Assembly (NCBI GenBank): GCA_963815215.1
Contig: CAWFFU010000011.1
Coordinates: forward strand, 256,001 to 320,000
DNA from: an uncultured Trueperaceae bacterium
Lineage (GTDB): Bacteria; Deinococcota; Deinococci; Deinococcales; Trueperaceae
Direction of reading: 5' to 3'
Length of the DNA stretch: 64,000 nucleotides
The first letter of the stretch is position 1, and every line of letters begins with the position of its first letter. Below the pieces are notes generated by a model, which had not been told where the DNA came from, made no database searches, and saw nothing but the letters and a program-made list of their open reading frames with translations. The translations under genes and the position numbers were made by a program. Positions 30,975 to 44,101 of the stretch are shown here, piece by piece.

Positions 30975-32201
30975 TCAGCCGCGCCCCAGCAGCTCCGCCT
31001 TGAAGGCCGCGAAGCGATCGTCGGCCAGGCTGGCGCGGATGTCCTCCATCAGACGCGCCATGAAGCGCAAGTTGTGCACGCTCACGAGTTGCTGGGCGAG
31101 CTGCTCGTTGGCCTTGAACAGATGCCGCACGTAGCTCCGGCTGAAGCCCGTGCAGGTCGAGCAATCGCACCCCGCCTCCAGTGGCCGCAGGTCCTCGACG
31201 AAGCGCGCGTTGCGCAGGTTGAGGCGGAAGTTGGCGATCGGCTCGCCGTCGTCTCCGCGCCGCACGAATGCCGCGCCGTTGCGGGCGTTCCGGGTCGGCG
31301 CCACGCAGTCGAAGGTGTCCACACCCCGCTCGACGGCCTCGAGGATGCTCGGCACGTCGCCGATGCCCAGAAGATGCCGCGGTTTGCCCTCGGGCAACTC
31401 GGGCACCGTCCAATCGAGCACCGCGTACATGTCCTGGAGGGTGCTCCCCAGGTTCCCGCCGATCGCCATGCCGTCGAACGGCATGGCGGCGATGGTGGCG
31501 GCGCTCTCCCGGCGCAACCCCTGGAAGGCGCCCCCCTGCACCACCCCGAACAGGGCCTGCGGGTGAGCGTGCCTGGGCCCGGAGCTCTCGAACGCGCGCA
31601 GGCTGCGCTCGGCCCAGCGGTGCGTGCGCTGCATCGAGCGGCGCGTGTACTCCTCGTCGTGGAGCGGGCTGGTGCACTCGTCGAAGGCGAGCACCATGTC
31701 CGCGCCCAGGGCACGTTGCACGTCGATGGAGACCTCAGGCGAGAAGGTATGGAGGCTGCCATCGATGTGGCTCTTGAAGCGCACCCCCTCCTCGCGAATG
31801 CGCACCATCGAGCGGCCCCCTGGCAGACGCGGCGGCGCCTCGCCGGGGAAGATCGACGCCACCTTGCCGACGCCGTGCTCGATGGACGCGCCCAGCGAGA
31901 ACACCTGGAAGCCGCCCGAATCGGTCAGGATCGGGCCGTTCCAGTTCATGAAGCGGTGGAGCCCGCCGTGCCGCTCGACGACGTCGGCTCCCGGCCGCAG
32001 GTACAGATGGTAGGTGTTGGCGAACAGCAGCTGCGTTCCCGTGGCGGCCACCGCGTCCGGCGCCACCCCCTTGACCGCTGCCTGGGTGCCCACCACGACG
32101 AACGCTGGCGTGCGCACCGTGCCGTGCGGTGTCTCGAGCGTACCCAGCCGCGCCGCGCCGCGGCGCTGCTGGAGGGTGAAGGTCAGGGCATGCGTATCCA
32201 T
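30975..32201 (-). CDS. tgt: tRNA-guanine(34) transglycosylase
   Basis: NTYHLYLRPG, TDSGGFQVFS, DEC, GVVQGG, DTFDCVAPTR, CDCSTC...HN zinc site. Confidence 0.96.
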   Translation of the reverse strand: MDTHALTFTLQQRRGAARLGTLETPHGTVRTPAFVVVGTQAAVKGVAPDAVAATGTQLLFANTYHLYLRPGADVVERHGGLHRFMNWNGPILTDSGGFQVFSLGASIEHGVGKVASIFPGEAPPRLPGGRSMVRIREEGVRFKSHIDGSLHTFSPEVSIDVQRALGADMVLAFDECTSPLHDEEYTRRSMQRTHRWAERSLRAFESSGPRHAHPQALFGVVQGGAFQGLRRESAATIAAMPFDGMAIGGNLGSTLQDMYAVLDWTVPELPEGKPRHLLGIGDVPSILEAVERGVDTFDCVAPTRNARNGAAFVRRGDDGEPIANFRLNLRNARFVEDLRPLEAGCDCSTCTGFSRSYVRHLFKANEQLAQQLVSVHNLRFMARLMEDIRASLADDRFAAFKAELLGRG

Positions 32202-32383
32202 GGTGGCGGCCCGCCATCTTACCCGCTTCCCGCCGGCGGCAGCGTTCCGTCAGCCCCACGGCCGAGACGGGACAACGATCCCTCCCGGCACACCGTGACG
32301 CCGATGTTAAGCTCCTGTTTGGCGGATTTCACGTGTTCTCACCGACGAGCAGCGTAGTATGCACGTGTCGGGCAGGTCCCGAC

Positions 32384-32456
32384 CTTGGAAGCGATGAAGC
32401 CTGTCTCACCACGTGGGCGCTTGAGACGGGTGGAGCGAGTAGCGCAACCGGCCAAG
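32384..32456 (+). ncRNA. c-di-GMP-II riboswitch aptamer 1
   Basis: CTTGG-AAGCGATGAAG-CCTGTCTCA-ccacgTGGGCGCt-TGAGACGGG-TGGAGCGAGTAGCGCAACCGG-CCAAG: P1 cttgg/ccaag, kink-turn-type TGAA/GGAG, stem, pseudoknot GCGC/GCGC and AGTAG.GCAACCG tail, as in the class II consensus. Confidence 0.88.
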
Positions 32457-32573
32457 ATGAGTCACCCCTCATCGACAGCCTGACAGTGCCCACGAACGAC
32501 CCCTTCCGGGGTCGACCAGGGCGACCACGGTATCCGAGCCCGGTGCATCCGCGCCGCACGCAACGGTCCCGAG

Positions 32574-32648
32574 GCCTTGGACGCGATGAAACCTGTCCTG
32601 CACTTGGGCGCTTGGGACAGGTGGAGCGAGTAGCGCAACCGGCCAGGC
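32574..32648 (+). ncRNA. c-di-GMP-II riboswitch aptamer 2
   Basis: GCCTTGG-ACGCGATGAA-ACCTGTCCTG-cactTGGGCGCt-TGGGACAGGT-GGAGCGAGTAGCGCAACCGG-CCAGGC; same core as aptamer 1 with compensatory stem changes. Confidence 0.88.
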
Positions 32649-32718
32649 AGGTCCGCAGGTTTGCAGGCTTCCCATCGTCGGTCAGGCGCCCCGATCTCTT
32701 CGCGATGCGAGGATGGCG

Positions 32719-33720
32719 ATGGCGCAGATGAGCAACCAGCCGAGCCAGACACCTACACGGCGCACCCGCCGCCCCGGTCGGCATGCCATGATCGGTTTCT
32801 CCGCCATGCTGGCCGCGCTGCTGCTGGCCACCGGCTGTTCGGGCGTGGCCACCGAGCCGCCCCAGGCGGTCACGAACGCCACGGATGTCAGACCGATGTT
32901 CGGCGCCTTCACTTACGGCGGCGTCTGGCAGGGCATGCAACCCGTCCACCAGCTCGAGGACCTGCTCGGCCGAAAGCTCGACGTGGTGCACTGGTTCATG
33001 AGCTGGGACACGCCCTATGACGTTGCGCTGGTCGAGTCCGCCATGGCCGGCGGACGCCTGCCGATGATCACCTGGCAGCCCTACCACCAGTCCGTCAGCG
33101 ATATCGCCGCCGGCACCTACGACGACCTCATGCGGAGCTTCGCTCGCGGTGTACGCGCGACGCCCGGCCTCGTCTACGTGCGGCCCTTCCCCGAGATGAA
33201 CGGCGACTGGGAGCCGTGGAACGGGCAGCCCGCCGAGTTCGTGAAGGCGTGGCGTCGCATGGTCGACATCTTCCGCGCAGAAGGCGCCGACAACGTGCGC
33301 TGGGTGTGGTCGCCGAACATCACCGACCAGCCCCGCACGACCGCCAACGCCATGGAGAAGTACTACCCGGGCAGCGCCTACGTCGACGTCCTCGCCCTGG
33401 ACGGCTACAACTGGGGCACGTCGCAGGGCTGGAGCCAGTGGCGTAGCTTCGACCAGATCTTCGCCGAACCCTATGCCCGCATCACCGCTCTGGGCCCCCA
33501 GCCGGTGTGGGTCGCCGAGGTCGCCTCGACCAACAAGGGCGGCGACAAAGCGGCCTGGGTCGCGAACATGCTCAGCAGCACCAAGTTCCCTCGCATCCGC
33601 GCGCTGATCTGGTTCAACGAGAACAGCGACCTGGATTGGCGCCTGGACAATTCGCTGGCCGTCATCCAGGCCGCTCGCGCGAGCCTCACCCCGAGTCTGC
33701 AGACGACCGCCAGCCGCTGA
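32719..33720 (+). CDS. Glycoside hydrolase family 26 lipoprotein
   Basis: Lipobox LATGC; PMITWQP, IAAGTYD, RPFPEMNGDWEPW (acid/base Glu), WVWSPN, YYPG..YVDVLALDGYN, VAEVAS (nucleophile). Start 32713, 32719 or 32728. Confidence 0.9.
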   Translation: MAQMSNQPSQTPTRRTRRPGRHAMIGFSAMLAALLLATGCSGVATEPPQAVTNATDVRPMFGAFTYGGVWQGMQPVHQLEDLLGRKLDVVHWFMSWDTPYDVALVESAMAGGRLPMITWQPYHQSVSDIAAGTYDDLMRSFARGVRATPGLVYVRPFPEMNGDWEPWNGQPAEFVKAWRRMVDIFRAEGADNVRWVWSPNITDQPRTTANAMEKYYPGSAYVDVLALDGYNWGTSQGWSQWRSFDQIFAEPYARITALGPQPVWVAEVASTNKGGDKAAWVANMLSSTKFPRIRALIWFNENSDLDWRLDNSLAVIQAARASLTPSLQTTASR

Positions 33721-33787
33721 GGCTAGCCGGCCGAGCCCTTCGCGTCTCTGTCTCTGAACACGACCGCGCGCGCCACGCCACTTCGCG

Positions 33788-36595
33788 TCAGCGCGCGCTG
33801 GCCGTGTCCGTCGGCGCCACGACGGCGCGCGAGCCCCCCGAGAACAACCGCTGCTGGACCGCGCTGTACACCGCCCCGTCCTCGACCCCGTTCGCCGCCA
33901 CGATGGCGCTGCTGCGCCGGTACGCGGCGGCGAGGTCGAGCTTGCCGGAGGCGACCTCGCCGCTCAACGCCACCAGCTGCCGTTCGGGTGCGGCGAGCGA
34001 CGAAGGATCGACCCGGTAGGCGGCGTAGGCGCTGCCGAGTGCGTCGGCCAACGGGCCGAGGTGCACCATGGCCTCCACCGGCCCGCGCAGTTTCGGCGCG
34101 ACCCGGCCGCTGCGCGTTACGCCGTGCAGCGGATTGATGTACAGAGCGTAGGCGACGGCGTCGTCGGTGACGACCGGGCGCGCCAGCGACCACGCCAGTT
34201 TCGCCGCGCCGGCACAGACCGAGAAGTCGGGATCGAAGACGTTGAACGAGCCGCTCAGCAGGTGGGGATTGTACAGCGCGGAGTTCGGATCCTCCGAGAC
34301 CGCCCGCAGCAGCGTCAGCGCGTCGGACGTCATCTGCGACAGTCCCTTGTCGCCGGTCTCCCCTACCGCCAGGGGGTCGAGGTAGGACTCGTTGATCAGG
34401 ACCTGCAGCATGAGGCGCACCGGAACGTCGTAGGTCGAAGCCGCCTGCTCGATGTAGGGCTCGATCGGGGCGAGCCGGCCCAGCATGAGCAGCTCGAACG
34501 GGTCCAGTGGCTGGTAGGCGCCGGCCGAGCCCGGGAGCGGCTGCGGGGCGGCGCTGGGATGCCGTAGGAAGACCGGCCGGCAGTACGCGGACAGCGTGGA
34601 GATCGGCTCGAGCACGGACCCGGTGCCGGAGCCGGCCCTGGAGCCGGCCGCGGAGCCAGTCGCGGACGGCGCGAGAGCGGTCCGTGTCGCGGCACTGTCG
34701 GTCCGGGAGATCACGGCGAAGGCCCCGGGGGCCGCCAGCGCGACCGGCCCTGCCAGCGTGACGCGGACCTGTGGCGCCGTCAGCGACAGCGCAGGGAGCG
34801 GCGAAGAGCGGAGCGGCAGGGCGATCGAAGCCTGGAGCAGCGGGATGGTGGCGCTTTGGGAGCCCGGGCTCAGCAACGCGGGAGCCACCTGCGCGACCGG
34901 CAGCGGCAGGTCGTCGTGTTGCGCCATGTCGAGCGGGGTCGTGCGAGCCAGCAGCCGCTCGATCGCGAGCTGGTCGGCACCCGATGCGGGCGCCAGCGCC
35001 AGGATGGCCACGAACACCACCGACAGGGCGGCGACGATGGAGGCCGCCGTTCCAACGGTGCGGCCGTCGACACCCCGCGTGGTGGGCCGCTCCCACGCCA
35101 CGCCCTGCGTGCGCGTGACCACGCTGCGGCTCGCCGCGCGGCGTTCGGCCAGGAACGCCGGGATCACGCTGGTGGCCGCCGCCACGAAGCTGACGGGGTT
35201 GGCCACCTTGAGAACCATATAGGGCAACCACGTGCTGACCAGCCGTCGACCCGCGAAGCGCGCCGCGGAGCCGCGCCGCCGGCGACCGTCACGCGCCTGC
35301 ACGTAGAAGCCCGAGAAGGTCATGAGGCCGGTCGCTGCCAGGTCCAGCCCGAACCAGGTGGCCAGGATGCGCACCAGGTCGGTCGTTCCGATCGTTCCCG
35401 CCGCGGTGAGGGCCAGCATCACCGGCAGCAGCAGTAGCAACAGCAACCCCAACAGGTTCTCGACTTGCGCAGCCCACAGCGTGAAGCGCACGTTGGAGCT
35501 CATCACCCTGTCGCCCGGATCCCCCAGGACCCGTTTCAGGGCGTTCTGGATGCCGCCGCCGTTCCAGCGTTCGATCTGCCGCAGGTAGCCGCCGACGTGC
35601 GCGGGATCCTCGGTGTACATCAGCGCGTCGCCCACGAAGCGGGCGTTCCCGCCGTGACGAAGCTCGATCACGTCGTGGCGGTCGAAGGCCTCCTCGAAGG
35701 GCAGCTCGGCGCCGTCCACGACGATCCGGAAGCCGCGCCGGGTGAGCTCGGCGGGCGTCAGGCGCTCGTCGTGCCGCGGCACTCGCTGCGCCGTGAGCGT
35801 CAGGTCGTGGTCCTCGGTCTGGGTGTCGGGCGGCATGGGCAGGACGTTGCGCCGCACCACGAAGCCGCAGCCGACCACCGTGTACAGGCGGCTGGCCCCC
35901 CACAGGCCGCCGTCACCCAGCATGCCGGCCTGGCCCCGGCGCAGCACGGCGGCGAAGGCGTACTCGGCCGAGCGACCGGCCGCGATGAAGCGCTGGGTCG
36001 GCCCGGCCCCCTCAGGAACGTAGGACATCACGGACCCGGACTGGAGGGCGTAGTCCTCGAGCACGGGCCGGCCGGCGATCCAACGCAGGCGGTAGAAGTT
36101 CCTCTCGAGCGCGGCGACGAACTCCGGATCGAAGACCGTGTCGCCGTCCACCAGAAGCACGCGCTCGGAACTCAGGATGCGGCTCGCCACCAGGTTGTTG
36201 ATCGCCTCGGACTTGGCCGTCCGCTGCGCGTACACCACCACCGCCACGCCCATGGCGTGATCGTGGTGGCTCCAGCGTTCGAGCGTGGCGCTCAGCCCCG
36301 GGGCACGGCCGGCCGAGTCCAGCTCGAACCCGTGCCCGACCAGGGTCGCGCCGACGACCTCGTGGGTGCGGTCGGTCCCGCCGTTGATGCTGACGATGAG
36401 TTCGTCGGGCAGGCGGCGCTGCGACAGCAGCGACGTCAGCGCCCGCCTCGCTCCGACCTCTTCGTTGTACATCGGCGAGACGACCGCCAGCCTGTCGGGT
36501 CCGCGGACGGGCAGACTACGGTCAGGGACCGTACTGAGCGCTGCGTTGAGAAGGGTTGTGGGCATCCCGGACAGGCCGAAGAAGTTGGGCATCAC
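33788..36595 (-). CDS. Processive GT2 glycan synthase fused to C-terminal lytic-transglycosylase (SLT)-like domain
   Basis: SPMYNEE, KSEAIN, DGDT, TED and QIERW (D,D,D,QxxRW); several TM helices; Pro/Ala/Ser linker; then IEQAASTYDVP..LM.QVLINES.LDPLAVG..GDKGLSQM...FDP..SV.AGA..L. Confidence 0.85.
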   Translation of the reverse strand: MMPNFFGLSGMPTTLLNAALSTVPDRSLPVRGPDRLAVVSPMYNEEVGARRALTSLLSQRRLPDELIVSINGGTDRTHEVVGATLVGHGFELDSAGRAPGLSATLERWSHHDHAMGVAVVVYAQRTAKSEAINNLVASRILSSERVLLVDGDTVFDPEFVAALERNFYRLRWIAGRPVLEDYALQSGSVMSYVPEGAGPTQRFIAAGRSAEYAFAAVLRRGQAGMLGDGGLWGASRLYTVVGCGFVVRRNVLPMPPDTQTEDHDLTLTAQRVPRHDERLTPAELTRRGFRIVVDGAELPFEEAFDRHDVIELRHGGNARFVGDALMYTEDPAHVGGYLRQIERWNGGGIQNALKRVLGDPGDRVMSSNVRFTLWAAQVENLLGLLLLLLLPVMLALTAAGTIGTTDLVRILATWFGLDLAATGLMTFSGFYVQARDGRRRRGSAARFAGRRLVSTWLPYMVLKVANPVSFVAAATSVIPAFLAERRAASRSVVTRTQGVAWERPTTRGVDGRTVGTAASIVAALSVVFVAILALAPASGADQLAIERLLARTTPLDMAQHDDLPLPVAQVAPALLSPGSQSATIPLLQASIALPLRSSPLPALSLTAPQVRVTLAGPVALAAPGAFAVISRTDSAATRTALAPSATGSAAGSRAGSGTGSVLEPISTLSAYCRPVFLRHPSAAPQPLPGSAGAYQPLDPFELLMLGRLAPIEPYIEQAASTYDVPVRLMLQVLINESYLDPLAVGETGDKGLSQMTSDALTLLRAVSEDPNSALYNPHLLSGSFNVFDPDFSVCAGAAKLAWSLARPVVTDDAVAYALYINPLHGVTRSGRVAPKLRGPVEAMVHLGPLADALGSAYAAYRVDPSSLAAPERQLVALSGEVASGKLDLAAAYRRSSAIVAANGVEDGAVYSAVQQRLFSGGSRAVVAPTDTASAR

Positions 36596-36796
36596 GAAGT
36601 CCTATCCGTTGGAGCTCTTCCACTCGAGGGCGGCGGCGGGGGCGGGGCGCCGCACTTTCGTCGCGCCTGTCGGGCCGCGACGACCCGCTGTGAAACCTCT
36701 CGCTCTCTATGTAACACTGCTCTCCCCGCCCTGTTGTCCAGCCGTCACAGCCCTGTGCGCTGGGTGGTTTACGATCGTGTGATTTGGGAGGTGCGC

Positions 36797-37420
36797 ATGG
36801 CACTTCACATCAGCGGTAAGCTCGTGGCCGTAGGCCTCGTCCTGGCCGCACTGATCACCGCATTCAGCGCCCCCCGCAGCGTACAGAACGCGGGTGTCGC
36901 CTTGACCCTCACCCCAACCGCCACGGTCCTCACCACGCCTGCCTCGCCGGCGCCGCTGCGGGCCGGGTCGGTCGGGCCCGAGGCCAATCCTGTGTTCACG
37001 CTGCGGGCCACGGGTTACAACTCGATGGTCGACCAGACCGACGCCACCCCGTTCATCACCTCGACTGGACAGCGTACCCGTTTCGGGATCATCGCGGTGA
37101 GCCCTGACCTACTGGCCCACGCCCTGCCGTACGGCAGCCTGGTGCGCATCCGGGACCTCGGCAACTACTACACCGGCCGCGGCTACGGGCACTACCAGAG
37201 CCTGCTGGACGGCCAGGGACTGTTCATCGTCGAGGACACCATGCACTACCGCAAGCGCGATCAGATCGACATCTGGTTCAGCGACTACGCCAGCGCGGTG
37301 AACTGGGGCATGCGCAAGGTGAGCGTCGAGGTCATCCGTTATGGGCGCAACGGCCCCAAACTCGAACCCTCGCGTGCCAACGACTTCAGCGGGACACCGC
37401 AACTGTTCGCCTCGCGCTGA
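36797..37420 (+). CDS. 3D-domain (MltA-like Asp-Asp-Asp) cell-wall protein
   Basis: GGGAGG SD; N-terminal TM/signal; ATGYNS..QTD.TPFITSTG, IIAVSPDL, LPYGS.V, VEDTM, QIDIW. Confidence 0.85.
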   Translation: MALHISGKLVAVGLVLAALITAFSAPRSVQNAGVALTLTPTATVLTTPASPAPLRAGSVGPEANPVFTLRATGYNSMVDQTDATPFITSTGQRTRFGIIAVSPDLLAHALPYGSLVRIRDLGNYYTGRGYGHYQSLLDGQGLFIVEDTMHYRKRDQIDIWFSDYASAVNWGMRKVSVEVIRYGRNGPKLEPSRANDFSGTPQLFASR

Positions 37421-37561
37421 CGGCGCCGACCGGCCGCACTCGCAGCGATCGGTCCTCAACCCGCGGCCCCGGACCGCAGTGACGTCCGCGGATGTGGCGC
37501 GCGCGGCCGGCACGGGCCGGGGGCGTCTCCGGCAGCCTCAGGCCGCACGGTAGACTGGCCC

Positions 37562-38743
37562 GTGCGGAGCCTCGTACCGTACCTGGCGTGGCGGCACGTC
37601 CGCCGACGCGGCCTGCAATCCGGCCTCACCGTGGTCGGCGTGGCGGTCGGCGTCATGGTCCTGATCGTCGCGCTGTCGCTGACCAACGGCTTCGTGGACG
37701 AGCTGATCCGCAGCACCCTGAAGGCCACCCCCATGCTCACGCTCGAGAGCTACATCTCCGGGCAGACGGTGCCGAACGACCCCGCGGTCGGCCGGGCCCT
37801 GGCGGGTCGCCCGTCGGTCACTGCGGTCGCCCCCTTCCTCAGCACCCAGGCGCTCATCGCGCGGCGCGCCAGCGCCAGCCTCGGGATCACCGCCCGGCAG
37901 GGCTACACCCAGATCGTGGGCATCGACCCGGCGCAGGAGACGCAAGTCCTCGACCTGCCGATCCTCCAGAAGCAGGCGACGGCCCTGGCCCGGCGGGACG
38001 GCATCGTGCTGGGCGCCTCGCTGGCGCAGCAGCTCGGCGTGATCGCAGGGGACAAGGTGGTGCTGCGCGACATCACGGGCCACACCGCCGAGCTCACCGT
38101 GGCAGGCACCTTCCGCGTCGGCAACGAGCTCATCGACGGGATCGCGTCGTACATGTCGCTGGCCAACCTGCAGCAGTACATGCACGTGGGGGACCGGATC
38201 AGCGGCTACCACTTGCGACTGGCCGACCCGCAGCGCGCTTCGGCGCTCGGTGTGACGCTCGGCGACGCCTTCGGCCTGCGCCCGGTCTCCTGGGACAGCC
38301 TGTTCGCCAACCTCATCAGCCAGCTCCGCCTGCAGAAGGCGGTCATCGCGGTGGTGGTGTTCCTCATCGTCCTTGTCGCCGCCATGGGGATCGCCAATAT
38401 CCTGGTGTTGACGGTATCGGAGAAGACCGAAGAGATCGCCATCCTGCGGGCGCTGGGCGCTACCGAGCGGCAGGTGCTGGCCGTCTTCACGCTGGAGGGG
38501 CTGCTGCTCGGCGCCACCGGCACGCTCCTGGGAGCCCTCCTCGGGCTGGGCGTGAGCACCTACTTCCGTCTGCAGCCCTACCCCCTGCCGGGCAACCTCT
38601 ACTTCATCACCCAGCTCCCCGTGCAGCTCCAGCCGACCGACGTGCTGTGGGTATGCGCGCTGTCGATCGGCACCAGCGTGCTCGCCGGGCTCTTCCCCGC
38701 GCGGCGCGCGGCCAACCTCGACCCCGTCGACGTCCTGCGCTGA
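37562..38743 (+). CDS. LolC/E (FtsX-like) ABC transporter permease
   Basis: GVAVGVMVLIVALSLTNGF, VSEKTEEIAILRALGA, LYFITQLP, PARRAANLDPVDVLR. Confidence 0.88.
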   Translation: MRSLVPYLAWRHVRRRGLQSGLTVVGVAVGVMVLIVALSLTNGFVDELIRSTLKATPMLTLESYISGQTVPNDPAVGRALAGRPSVTAVAPFLSTQALIARRASASLGITARQGYTQIVGIDPAQETQVLDLPILQKQATALARRDGIVLGASLAQQLGVIAGDKVVLRDITGHTAELTVAGTFRVGNELIDGIASYMSLANLQQYMHVGDRISGYHLRLADPQRASALGVTLGDAFGLRPVSWDSLFANLISQLRLQKAVIAVVVFLIVLVAAMGIANILVLTVSEKTEEIAILRALGATERQVLAVFTLEGLLLGATGTLLGALLGLGVSTYFRLQPYPLPGNLYFITQLPVQLQPTDVLWVCALSIGTSVLAGLFPARRAANLDPVDVLR

Positions 38744-39457: not shown

Positions 39458-39535
<78 letters not shown>

Positions 39536-44027: not shown

Positions 44028-44101
44028 GGCTCGGCGGGTAGGATTCGAACCTACGACCAATCGGTTAACAGCCGACCGCTCTACCACTGAGCTACCGCCG
44101 A
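44027..44101 (-). tRNA. tRNA-Asn(GTT)
   Basis: Reverse complement TCGGCGGTAGCTCAGTGGTAGAGCGGTCGGCTGTTAACCGATTGGTCGTAGGTTCGAATCCTACCCGCCGAGCCA; minus-strand promoter TTGCAC-17-TAGACT at 44172-44144. Confidence 0.97.

Follow-up and report, generated by a model that had tools for sequence, protein, structure and literature searches.

A putative GT2 synthase fused to a predicted lysozyme-fold domain in Trueperaceae, with a co-inherited GH26 gene and c-di-GMP-II riboswitches

Genes and features at the locus

We analyzed a stretch of 64,000 nucleotides from an uncultured Trueperaceae bacterium (assembly GCA_963815215.1, contig CAWFFU010000011.1, positions 256,001 to 320,000), hereafter called the window. 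It contains a gene in which a putative glycosyltransferase family 2 (GT2) synthase is joined in one reading frame to a predicted lysozyme-fold domain of the SLT type, referred to below as the tail. A gene for a putative lipoprotein of glycoside hydrolase family 26 (GH26) converges on the fusion gene, and two predicted riboswitches of the c-di-GMP-II type, for the biofilm signal cyclic di-GMP (c-di-GMP), lie 5' of the GH26 gene (Table 1). What the fusion does can best be judged from these two neighbors, the GH26 gene and the riboswitches.

Table 1. Coordinates of the features described. Positions refer to the window, except in the last row, where they refer to other loci; residue numbers are those of the window protein. 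aa, amino acids; TM, transmembrane.
Feature	Position	Strand	Details
GT2-lysozyme-fold fusion gene	33788..36595	(-)	935 aa from GTG; likely start ATG 36592
Uncharged N-terminal segment, aa 2-24	36524..36592	(-)	P12, N17 in 119/121
GT-A catalytic domain, aa 33-357	35525..36499	(-)	NGGTD 71-75, DGDT 150-153, GCG 242-244, TEDH 260-263, QIERW 340-344
Family-specific folded insertion of ~45 aa, aa 271-314	35654..35785	(-)	after TED
Predicted TM hairpin, aa 378-398 + 407-436	35288..35464	(-)	E379 121/121, W414 116/121, D418 119/121
Arg-rich predicted interface helices, aa 441-489, + W-x-R loop	35084..35275	(-)	W501, R503 invariant
Last predicted TM helix, aa 511-534	34994..35065	(-)	predicted in-to-out
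Disordered Pro/Ala/Ser/Gly linker, aa 566-663	34607..34900	(-)	56% Pro/Ala/Ser/Gly, pLDDT <50
Lysozyme-fold (SLT/GH23-like) domain, aa 664-925	33821..34606	(-)	E736-S737, D749-x-G-L-S-Q754, Y816-A-x-Y819-I-N-P822, C672/C794
Convergent GH26 gene	32713..33720	(+)	co-inherited with the fusion; LATGC resembles a lipobox; aligned with CelH at both catalytic Glu
c-di-GMP-II aptamer, distal	32378..32462	(+)	Rfam RF01786 64.4 bits, cut-off 53.5
c-di-GMP-II aptamer, proximal to GH26	32573..32653	(+)	Rfam RF01786 71.0 bits, cut-off 53.5
Strand complementary to aptamer GGGCGC and ACCGG	32678..32691	(+)	13/15 loci; likely anti-aptamer
Beta-helix (PMP-repeat) lipoprotein genes of other loci	L037:11781-13430, L039:10826-12448, L040:4265-5887, L041:11535-13052, L042:3675-5297		

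The fusion is one conserved protein

A reading made from the sequence alone (the sequence-only reading) had proposed a genuine fusion of a GT2 synthase and an SLT domain, and this proposal was borne out. Both halves lay in a single frame in 57 of the 61 loci fetched with long flanks (56 by motif pattern, plus L060, an 892-aa open reading frame (ORF) whose SLT motif the pattern missed). Two of the remaining loci run off contig ends, and two (L037 and L055) are split by a stop codon or frameshift. In a public run that may itself have been the source of the window, one contig of 600 bases extended without gaps across the start of the SLT domain, the linker and the last TM helix. The single-frame loci and the bridging contig ruled out an assembly artefact or a chance read-through, and the fusion is one genuine, conserved protein. 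The split copies in L037 and L055, like P0130, a 459-aa call that begins at aa 477 of a near-identical protein, are probably sequencing errors or decay.

Counts out of 121 refer to a family alignment of the query and 120 homologs. The true start of the gene is probably the codon after the GTG, since Met stands there in 88/121 members and AGGA lies just 5' of it. Pfam models for Glycos_transf_2 (aa 38-81, E 7e-7) and SLT (aa 714-804, E 2.8e-6) passed their cut-offs on the fusion protein, and two more GT2 models scored slightly below theirs. The motifs quoted in the sequence-only reading were all located, namely DGDT at 150-153, TED at 260-262, QIERW at 340-344, INES at 734-737, GLSQM at 751-755 and FDPDFSVCAGAAKL at aa 787-800.

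The synthase half and the membrane region

Residues D150, D152, T260-E-D-H263, Q340, R343 and W344 were invariant in 121/121 sequences. A full D,D,D,QxxRW set had been claimed for this half. DGDT, TED and QIERW were confirmed, but the first Asp was not, as the position of the classical DDG reads I/V-N-G-G-x-D, with N71 and D75 in 121/121. The insertion of about 50 aa noted after TED was also found. The TED-QxxRW spacing is about 35 aa in typical processive GT2s and was 79-80 aa in 120/121 homologs (the remaining one was parsed wrongly), which gives an insertion of about 45 aa; it was folded in the model, with a predicted local distance difference test score (pLDDT) of 94-98.

The AlphaFold model of the whole protein (120 sequences) had a mean pLDDT of 87.7, dropping below 50 in the linker, and a predicted template modeling score (pTM) of 0.76. 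Foldseek placed hyaluronan, chitin and cellulose synthases at the top with nearly equal scores (E 4e-9, 2e-8 and 1e-7, respectively). VIA-align matched the hyaluronan synthases (HAS) CvHAS (8snc; Z 22.1, root-mean-square deviation (rmsd) 4.7, 394 residues aligned, model residues 6-546) and XlHAS1 (8smm; Z 20.3, rmsd 3.9, 402 aligned), as well as BcsA (Z 19.5, rmsd 4.4, 339 aligned). PDB searches with the single sequence of each half gave nothing significant, and the NCBIfam equivalogs PgaC/IcaA (23.4 vs 422 bits) and NodC (12.4 vs 550 bits) were not reached. The front half models as a GT2 of the hyaluronan/chitin-synthase type.

The first 23 residues of the family were conserved and almost without charge. 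The range aligned to XlHAS1 ran from residue 65, within the GLYG kink of transmembrane helix 2 (TMH2), to residue 542, at about the start of TMH6. Statements cited here by PMC number rest on excerpts of those papers; GLYG occupies residues 63-66 of XlHAS1 (PMC11750622). Judged from the ends of the aligned range (model residue 6, XlHAS1 residue 65), the segment of aa 2-24 is predicted to correspond to TMH2 of HAS in its inner half. The W-x-R loop after interface helix 3 is likely the gating loop, and HAS has a WGT motif in its loop (PMC11750622). The membrane scaffold would tentatively consist of half of TMH2, TMH3, TMH4, interface helix 3, the gating loop and TMH5. E379, W414, D418 and N17 were conserved within the membrane segments. 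The cellulose channel is acidic and the hyaluronan channel basic (PMC11750622, Discussion), so that the acidic conserved residues hint at a neutral product.

Linker, topology and fold of the tail

A Pro/Ala/Ser/Gly linker had been noted between the halves and was present; across the family its length ranged from 5 to 354 aa, with a median of 38. The median numbers of Lys and Arg in five successive loops were 5, 1, 6, 8 and 3, and every tail (121/121) contained exactly two Cys, as a disulfide would need. From this charge bias and the Cys pair, the tail is predicted to be extracytoplasmic (periplasmic), in agreement with the sequence-only reading.

A model of the tail alone (67 sequences) gave the anticipated lysozyme fold with a pLDDT of 94.5. 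Its closest match was MltC (Z 14.3, rmsd 2.7, 144 residues aligned), followed by other lytic transglycosylases (LTs), namely 5o2n (Z 13.6), MltE (13.0), MltF (12.7) and Slt70 (11.5), and Foldseek concurred. Two glycanases scored below the LTs, a GH23 chitinase of Ralstonia at 10.4 and a cellulase of family GH124 at 10.1; further down came the EtgA/IagB-type structures 8urn (8.4) and 4xp8 (6.8) and the mannanase 5xtj (6.8). The C-terminal helical part of the tail, comprising the last 60-odd residues, was hardly covered by the LT matches. Of the 67 tail domains, 13 gave a weak match to MltC and 4 to IagB.

E736, S737, D749, G751 and Q754 were present in 121/121 sequences, so that motif I (ES), with its catalytic Glu, and motif II (GxxQ) are retained as had been noted. 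The label of a family-1 LT did not hold. D749 aligns with Ala in MltC, was assigned to the position of lysozyme D52 by sequence register and not by superposition, and precedes Q754 by five residues, as D60 precedes Q65 in EtgA. EtgA D60 corresponds to lysozyme D52 and is Ala in Slt70, a position at which muramidases and LTs differ (PMC10880428, section 2.4). With an invariant Asp749 at the second-acid position, and with the Asn of motif III and the Tyr of motif IV missing, the tail does not appear to be a standard family-1 LT, and hydrolysis is likelier.

Unfused relatives of the tail

A profile search with the tail against 1.84 billion representatives gave 112 matches. We aligned 45 unfused sisters, selected by long match with short generic SLT matches excluded, and found the Glu in 42/45, the Asp in 44/45 and G-x-x-Q in 45/45. 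These sisters also lack the motif III Asn and the motif IV Tyr, indicating that the losses predate the fusion. Among the named sisters, two records were from Woesearchaeota, where the SLT is joined to a polysaccharide deacetylase, and one was from Dehalococcoidia.

Proteins P0157-P0229 represent a membrane-anchored SLT subfamily with ES...D-x-G-x-x-Q and Y-x-x-G, apparently without a family name. It includes three deacetylase-SLT fusions, each about 700 aa long and two of them named Woesearchaeota, and in P0186 the SLT domain is joined to a DegT aminotransferase domain. The deepest-branching full GT2-SLT fusion in a quick tree was P0151 (L102:2-808). Its contig has a low GC content, which does not exclude Trueperaceae, and the gene next after its fusion is not GH26 but codes for a small lipoprotein-like product.

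The GH26 partner and neighboring genes

The closest solved structure to the partner was the GH26 module of CelH from Clostridium thermocellum (2bv9; E 5e-55, residues 70-324), a lichenase, whereas mannanases reached E 2e-10 or weaker. In 59/59 partner GH26 ORFs kept, the His before the acid/base Glu is exchanged for Pro, so the specificity may differ from that of CelH. The whole Cel5-26H enzyme cleaves mixed-linkage glucan tetramers (PMC5651568).

Of the 77 genomes with the fusion, 74 had GH26, although the match was weak in two (G009 and G037); among the 51 others, one had it. Counting loci whose flank reached 2.5 kb or more, GH26 was convergent with the fusion gene at a distance of <=5 kb in 39 of 44, and the cassette often has two GH26 paralogs. 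A pyrroloquinoline quinone (PQQ) sugar dehydrogenase gene was found at 33/44 loci; the window genome has no PQQ gene at the locus. Close PQQ dehydrogenases were present in 51 genomes, 50 of them with the fusion (the exception is G090). Five negative relatives, chosen out of 51 from genera with positive members, all had an empty site in which tgt and a 3D-like gene lie 170-440 bases apart on one contig. In other lineages the fusion and GH26 stand together in a different gene context.

The 3D-like gene, at 36797-37420 (+) in the window, encodes a secreted protein that we take to be 3D-domain-like from its motifs; it had no Pfam hit, and its NCBIfam match was EntC at E 0.052. It is divergent from the fusion gene and stands beside tgt even without the cassette. 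We rejected it as a cassette member, as it remains in 5/5 empty sites; GH26 was kept without it in 4 of 40 fully flanked loci, and the reverse was seen in none. Two tRNA genes lie at 39458-39531 (+) and 44030-44101 (-).

Five low-GC loci without an adjacent GH26 gene carry a gene for a beta-helix lipoprotein 3' of the fusion on the same strand (Table 1), which could be a polymer-binding or lyase partner. At one of the 61 loci, a gene for a secreted polysaccharide deacetylase overlaps the stop codon of the fusion (L054:11519-12670).

c-di-GMP-II riboswitches

A riboswitch was found 5' of GH26 in 14 of the 15 loci scanned, and the sequence of the exception ends ~110 bases upstream of the gene. 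None was found in 5/5 empty sites or in 2/2 loci without adjacent GH26. The riboswitches face the hydrolase GH26 and not the synthase. The strand at 32678..32691 is likely the anti-aptamer of an expression platform; its pattern, set after viewing the data, recurred in 13/15 loci against 0.2 expected from shuffles. Constrained folding for the direction of the switch was inconsistent over the 11 of 15 loci parsed by the pattern: with the aptamer masked, the start region was less open in the window and L031 and more open in several others. The stretch 32150-37600 showed no pattern of a sigma-70 promoter or of an intrinsic terminator. The genome has seven c-di-GMP-II riboswitches including these two; the others are tandem pairs at C3:1070163-1070436 and C8:287590-287833 and a single one at C11:361343-361426.

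Distribution among genomes

Matches to the fusion were found in 77 of 128 Trueperaceae genomes (46/79 among the high-quality ones). The tail alone gave strong matches in the same 77 genomes and four weak ones (E 1.8e-6 to 8e-4) in 236 genomes of the other families of the phylum. The window genome has one further SLT gene elsewhere, with a stronger Pfam match than the fusion tail. An unfused close sister of the GT2 half was not found: a search by shorter length gave 9 hits resembling fragments or frameshifted members, and in a profile search with 154 matches, the best 120 all belonged to the family. A plasmid search yielded one weak match, and the protein-atlas clusters matched were generic GT2 clusters of 350-440 aa and generic SLT clusters. 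On fusion proteins in databases, both domains are already annotated. Two loci titled Gemmatimonas and Hyphomicrobiales (L043 and L074, respectively) carry the fusion; the gene order of L043 is fully that of Trueperaceae, and both are probably mis-binned contigs.

Proposed mechanism and alternatives

The cassette most probably makes and edits a c-di-GMP-linked surface glycan. More tentatively, we favor a cassette whose tail hydrolyses peptidoglycan at the exit site of the polymer. The fusion, its conservation and co-inheritance and the riboswitch matches are observations and the folds and topology are predictions, whereas processivity, export, substrates, the division of labor and the direction of the switch are inferences. 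The cytoplasmic GT2 domain would polymerise a beta-linked glycan, which would pass through the predicted hyaluronan-synthase-like membrane region. The tethered, predicted-periplasmic tail would then hydrolyse nearby peptidoglycan and let the chain cross the wall, with Glu736 and Asp749 in the roles that E42 and D60 have in EtgA, which works at the type III secretion system. Trimming, release or clearance of the polymer would fall to the co-inherited GH26 lipoprotein, whose level c-di-GMP would control through the riboswitches. Peptidoglycan is favored as the target because the nearest folds act on it, because the Glu/Asp pair resembles that of secretion-system wall openers, and because of the flexible tether and the Streptomyces precedent with separate proteins. 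A separate glycanase, GH26, is already in the cassette, which would leave the wall for the tail. As to the product, GH26 points to a beta-glucan, while the W-type loop, the lysozyme fold and the one deacetylase neighbor point to N-acetylglucosamine (GlcNAc).

Several observations weigh against wall opening by the tail of an exporting synthase. The top VIA-align match of the whole model was PcManGT (6yv7; Z 25.1, rmsd 3.5, 325 residues aligned), and the fusion protein has three clear TM helices plus the uncharged 23-aa N-terminus; NodC has three TM helices and no channel (PMC4132801). The cassette loci showed neither an export gene nor one for the outer membrane, and GH26 was not adjacent in 5/44 loci. 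Linkers can be very short, with a 10th percentile of 19 aa. Motif III reads Y/F-I/V-N-P in 121/121 and not Y-N-x-G, and aa 826-855 contain no conserved motif IV Tyr but a His in 102/121; EtgA and Slt70 share N117 and Y133 (PMC10880428). In the quick tree, a branch of length 1.62 (SH-aLRT 100) set the 25 fused tails apart, and its length suggests that their function changed. As the LT fold is the parent, even a glycanase derived from it would have LTs as its best matches. In addition, the kin are not independent.

A rather unlikely alternative, though the strongest of them, is that the tail cuts the nascent polymer at the channel exit, setting its length or releasing chains, with GH26 cutting another linkage. 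The polymer would then likely contain GlcNAc and possibly have mixed beta-1,3/1,4 linkages like hyaluronan. The non-canonical motifs III and IV and the long branch of the fused tails fit this alternative, but the 45 unfused sisters lack the same motif residues. Lysozyme folds include a chitinase, the GH124 cellulase and the mannanase 5xtj, and the W-type loop and the conserved Cys243 resemble those of HAS and NodC; GH26, however, is nearest to a glucanase. The deacetylase gene directly 3' of the fusion in L054 also points this way but is adjacent at that one locus only. So do the deacetylase fusions of sister SLTs in Woesearchaeota records, but a deacetylase-lysozyme fusion could just as well act on peptidoglycan. 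The whole-model pTM may mean that the tail docks on the membrane part.

It is improbable that a non-exporting GT2, similar to NodC or PcManGT, makes a short oligosaccharide or glycolipid while the tail acts independently as a membrane-anchored wall hydrolase. The PcManGT match, the few TM helices and the I-N-G at the DDG position are in its favor. The conserved polar and acidic residues in the TM helices, the invariant W-x-R loop, the HAS alignment of ~400 residues that includes the helix after the loop, and the co-inheritance of a secreted GH26 argue for export.

Still less probable is that Glu736 and Asp749 form a retaining pair with which the tail joins the polymer to peptidoglycan by transglycosylation. 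Asp749 is invariant at the lysozyme D52 position, and a cassette that lacks an export gene may leave its product in the wall, but EtgA D60 is tied to hydrolysis and not to transfer (PMC10880428). Equally speculative is a one-protein wall-grafting machine, in which a pared-down HAS scaffold would build and export a new mixed-linkage, possibly GlcNAc-containing glycan, and a lysozyme-type Glu/Asp pair would cut peptidoglycan and splice the glycan into it under c-di-GMP-controlled editing. A true LT making 1,6-anhydro ends, or a non-catalytic binder, is very improbable: ES and GxxQ are present, the Pfam SLT model passes its cut-off, the top folds are LTs, and conservation of the Asp is incomplete in the relatives of EtgA (PMC10880428), but Asp749 is invariant where LTs have Ala, and the invariance of E736 argues against a dead domain.

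Comparison with known systems

No prior description of the fusion or the cassette was found in the literature searched, a scope that left out most subscription papers, CAZy, CDART and supplements, and the excerpt of PMC12419801 contained no account of the fusion. Apparently undescribed as well is an SLT subfamily with a second acid, which reaches Woesearchaeota and Dehalococcoidia records. The fusion family also provides a minimal scaffold, predicted to be HAS-like, whose product is probably new.

Class I HAS (CvHAS, XlHAS1), chitin synthases and BcsA share with the fusion the GT-A fold, DxD, a TED-like motif, QxxRW, interface helices, a TM hairpin and a W-containing loop before the next TM helix. 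The fusion differs from them in that no equivalent of TMH1 or TMH6 was seen, the DDG position reads I-N-G, the 45-aa insertion is present, the conserved TM residues are acidic rather than basic, and a predicted-periplasmic hydrolase is fused; identity is 11-17%. PcManGT of Pyrobaculum calidifontis is the best structural match, but it has 346 residues, no tail and a non-polymerising role.

MltC, MltE, MltF and Slt70 share with the tail the fold (Z 11.5-14.3), ES and GxxQ. The tail departs from family-1 LTs in the Asp that replaces Ala two residues ahead of GxxQ, in Y-I-N-P where they have Y-N-x-G, in the missing Tyr of motif IV, in additional helices at the C-terminus and in the fusion to a synthase. 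EtgA and IagB share the Glu and D-x-G-x-x-Q with the tail and are proposed to open the wall for a trans-envelope process (PMC10880428). They are free, small, partner-placed proteins that keep N117/Y133, and they score lower structurally. The GH26 module of CelH shares both catalytic Glu with the partner, which has Pro for His.

A GH6-type glucanase, CslZ, belongs to the CslA-GlxA-CslZ-LpmP system of Streptomyces. That system likewise combines a GT2 synthase, an oxidoreductase and a lipoprotein glucanase with wall opening, and the proposed role of CslZ and LpmP is to make way through peptidoglycan for the glycan of CslA (PMC9040799). It differs in using separate, non-homologous proteins, including a lytic polysaccharide monooxygenase and a copper oxidase, with no fusion, and the excerpt of PMC9040799 does not mention a riboswitch. 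The passage of the polymer through peptidoglycan is said there to be undescribed for any well-studied cellulose system (PMC9040799, Discussion). The natural fusion of a synthase to a lysozyme fold makes this question of polymer crossing testable with a single point mutant, E736Q. BcsZ and PgaB are further hydrolases paired with synthases. As such pairings and bacterial mixed-linkage synthases (RiGT2, BgsA; PMC10374906) are already known, the fusion is a variant of known systems rather than a new kind.

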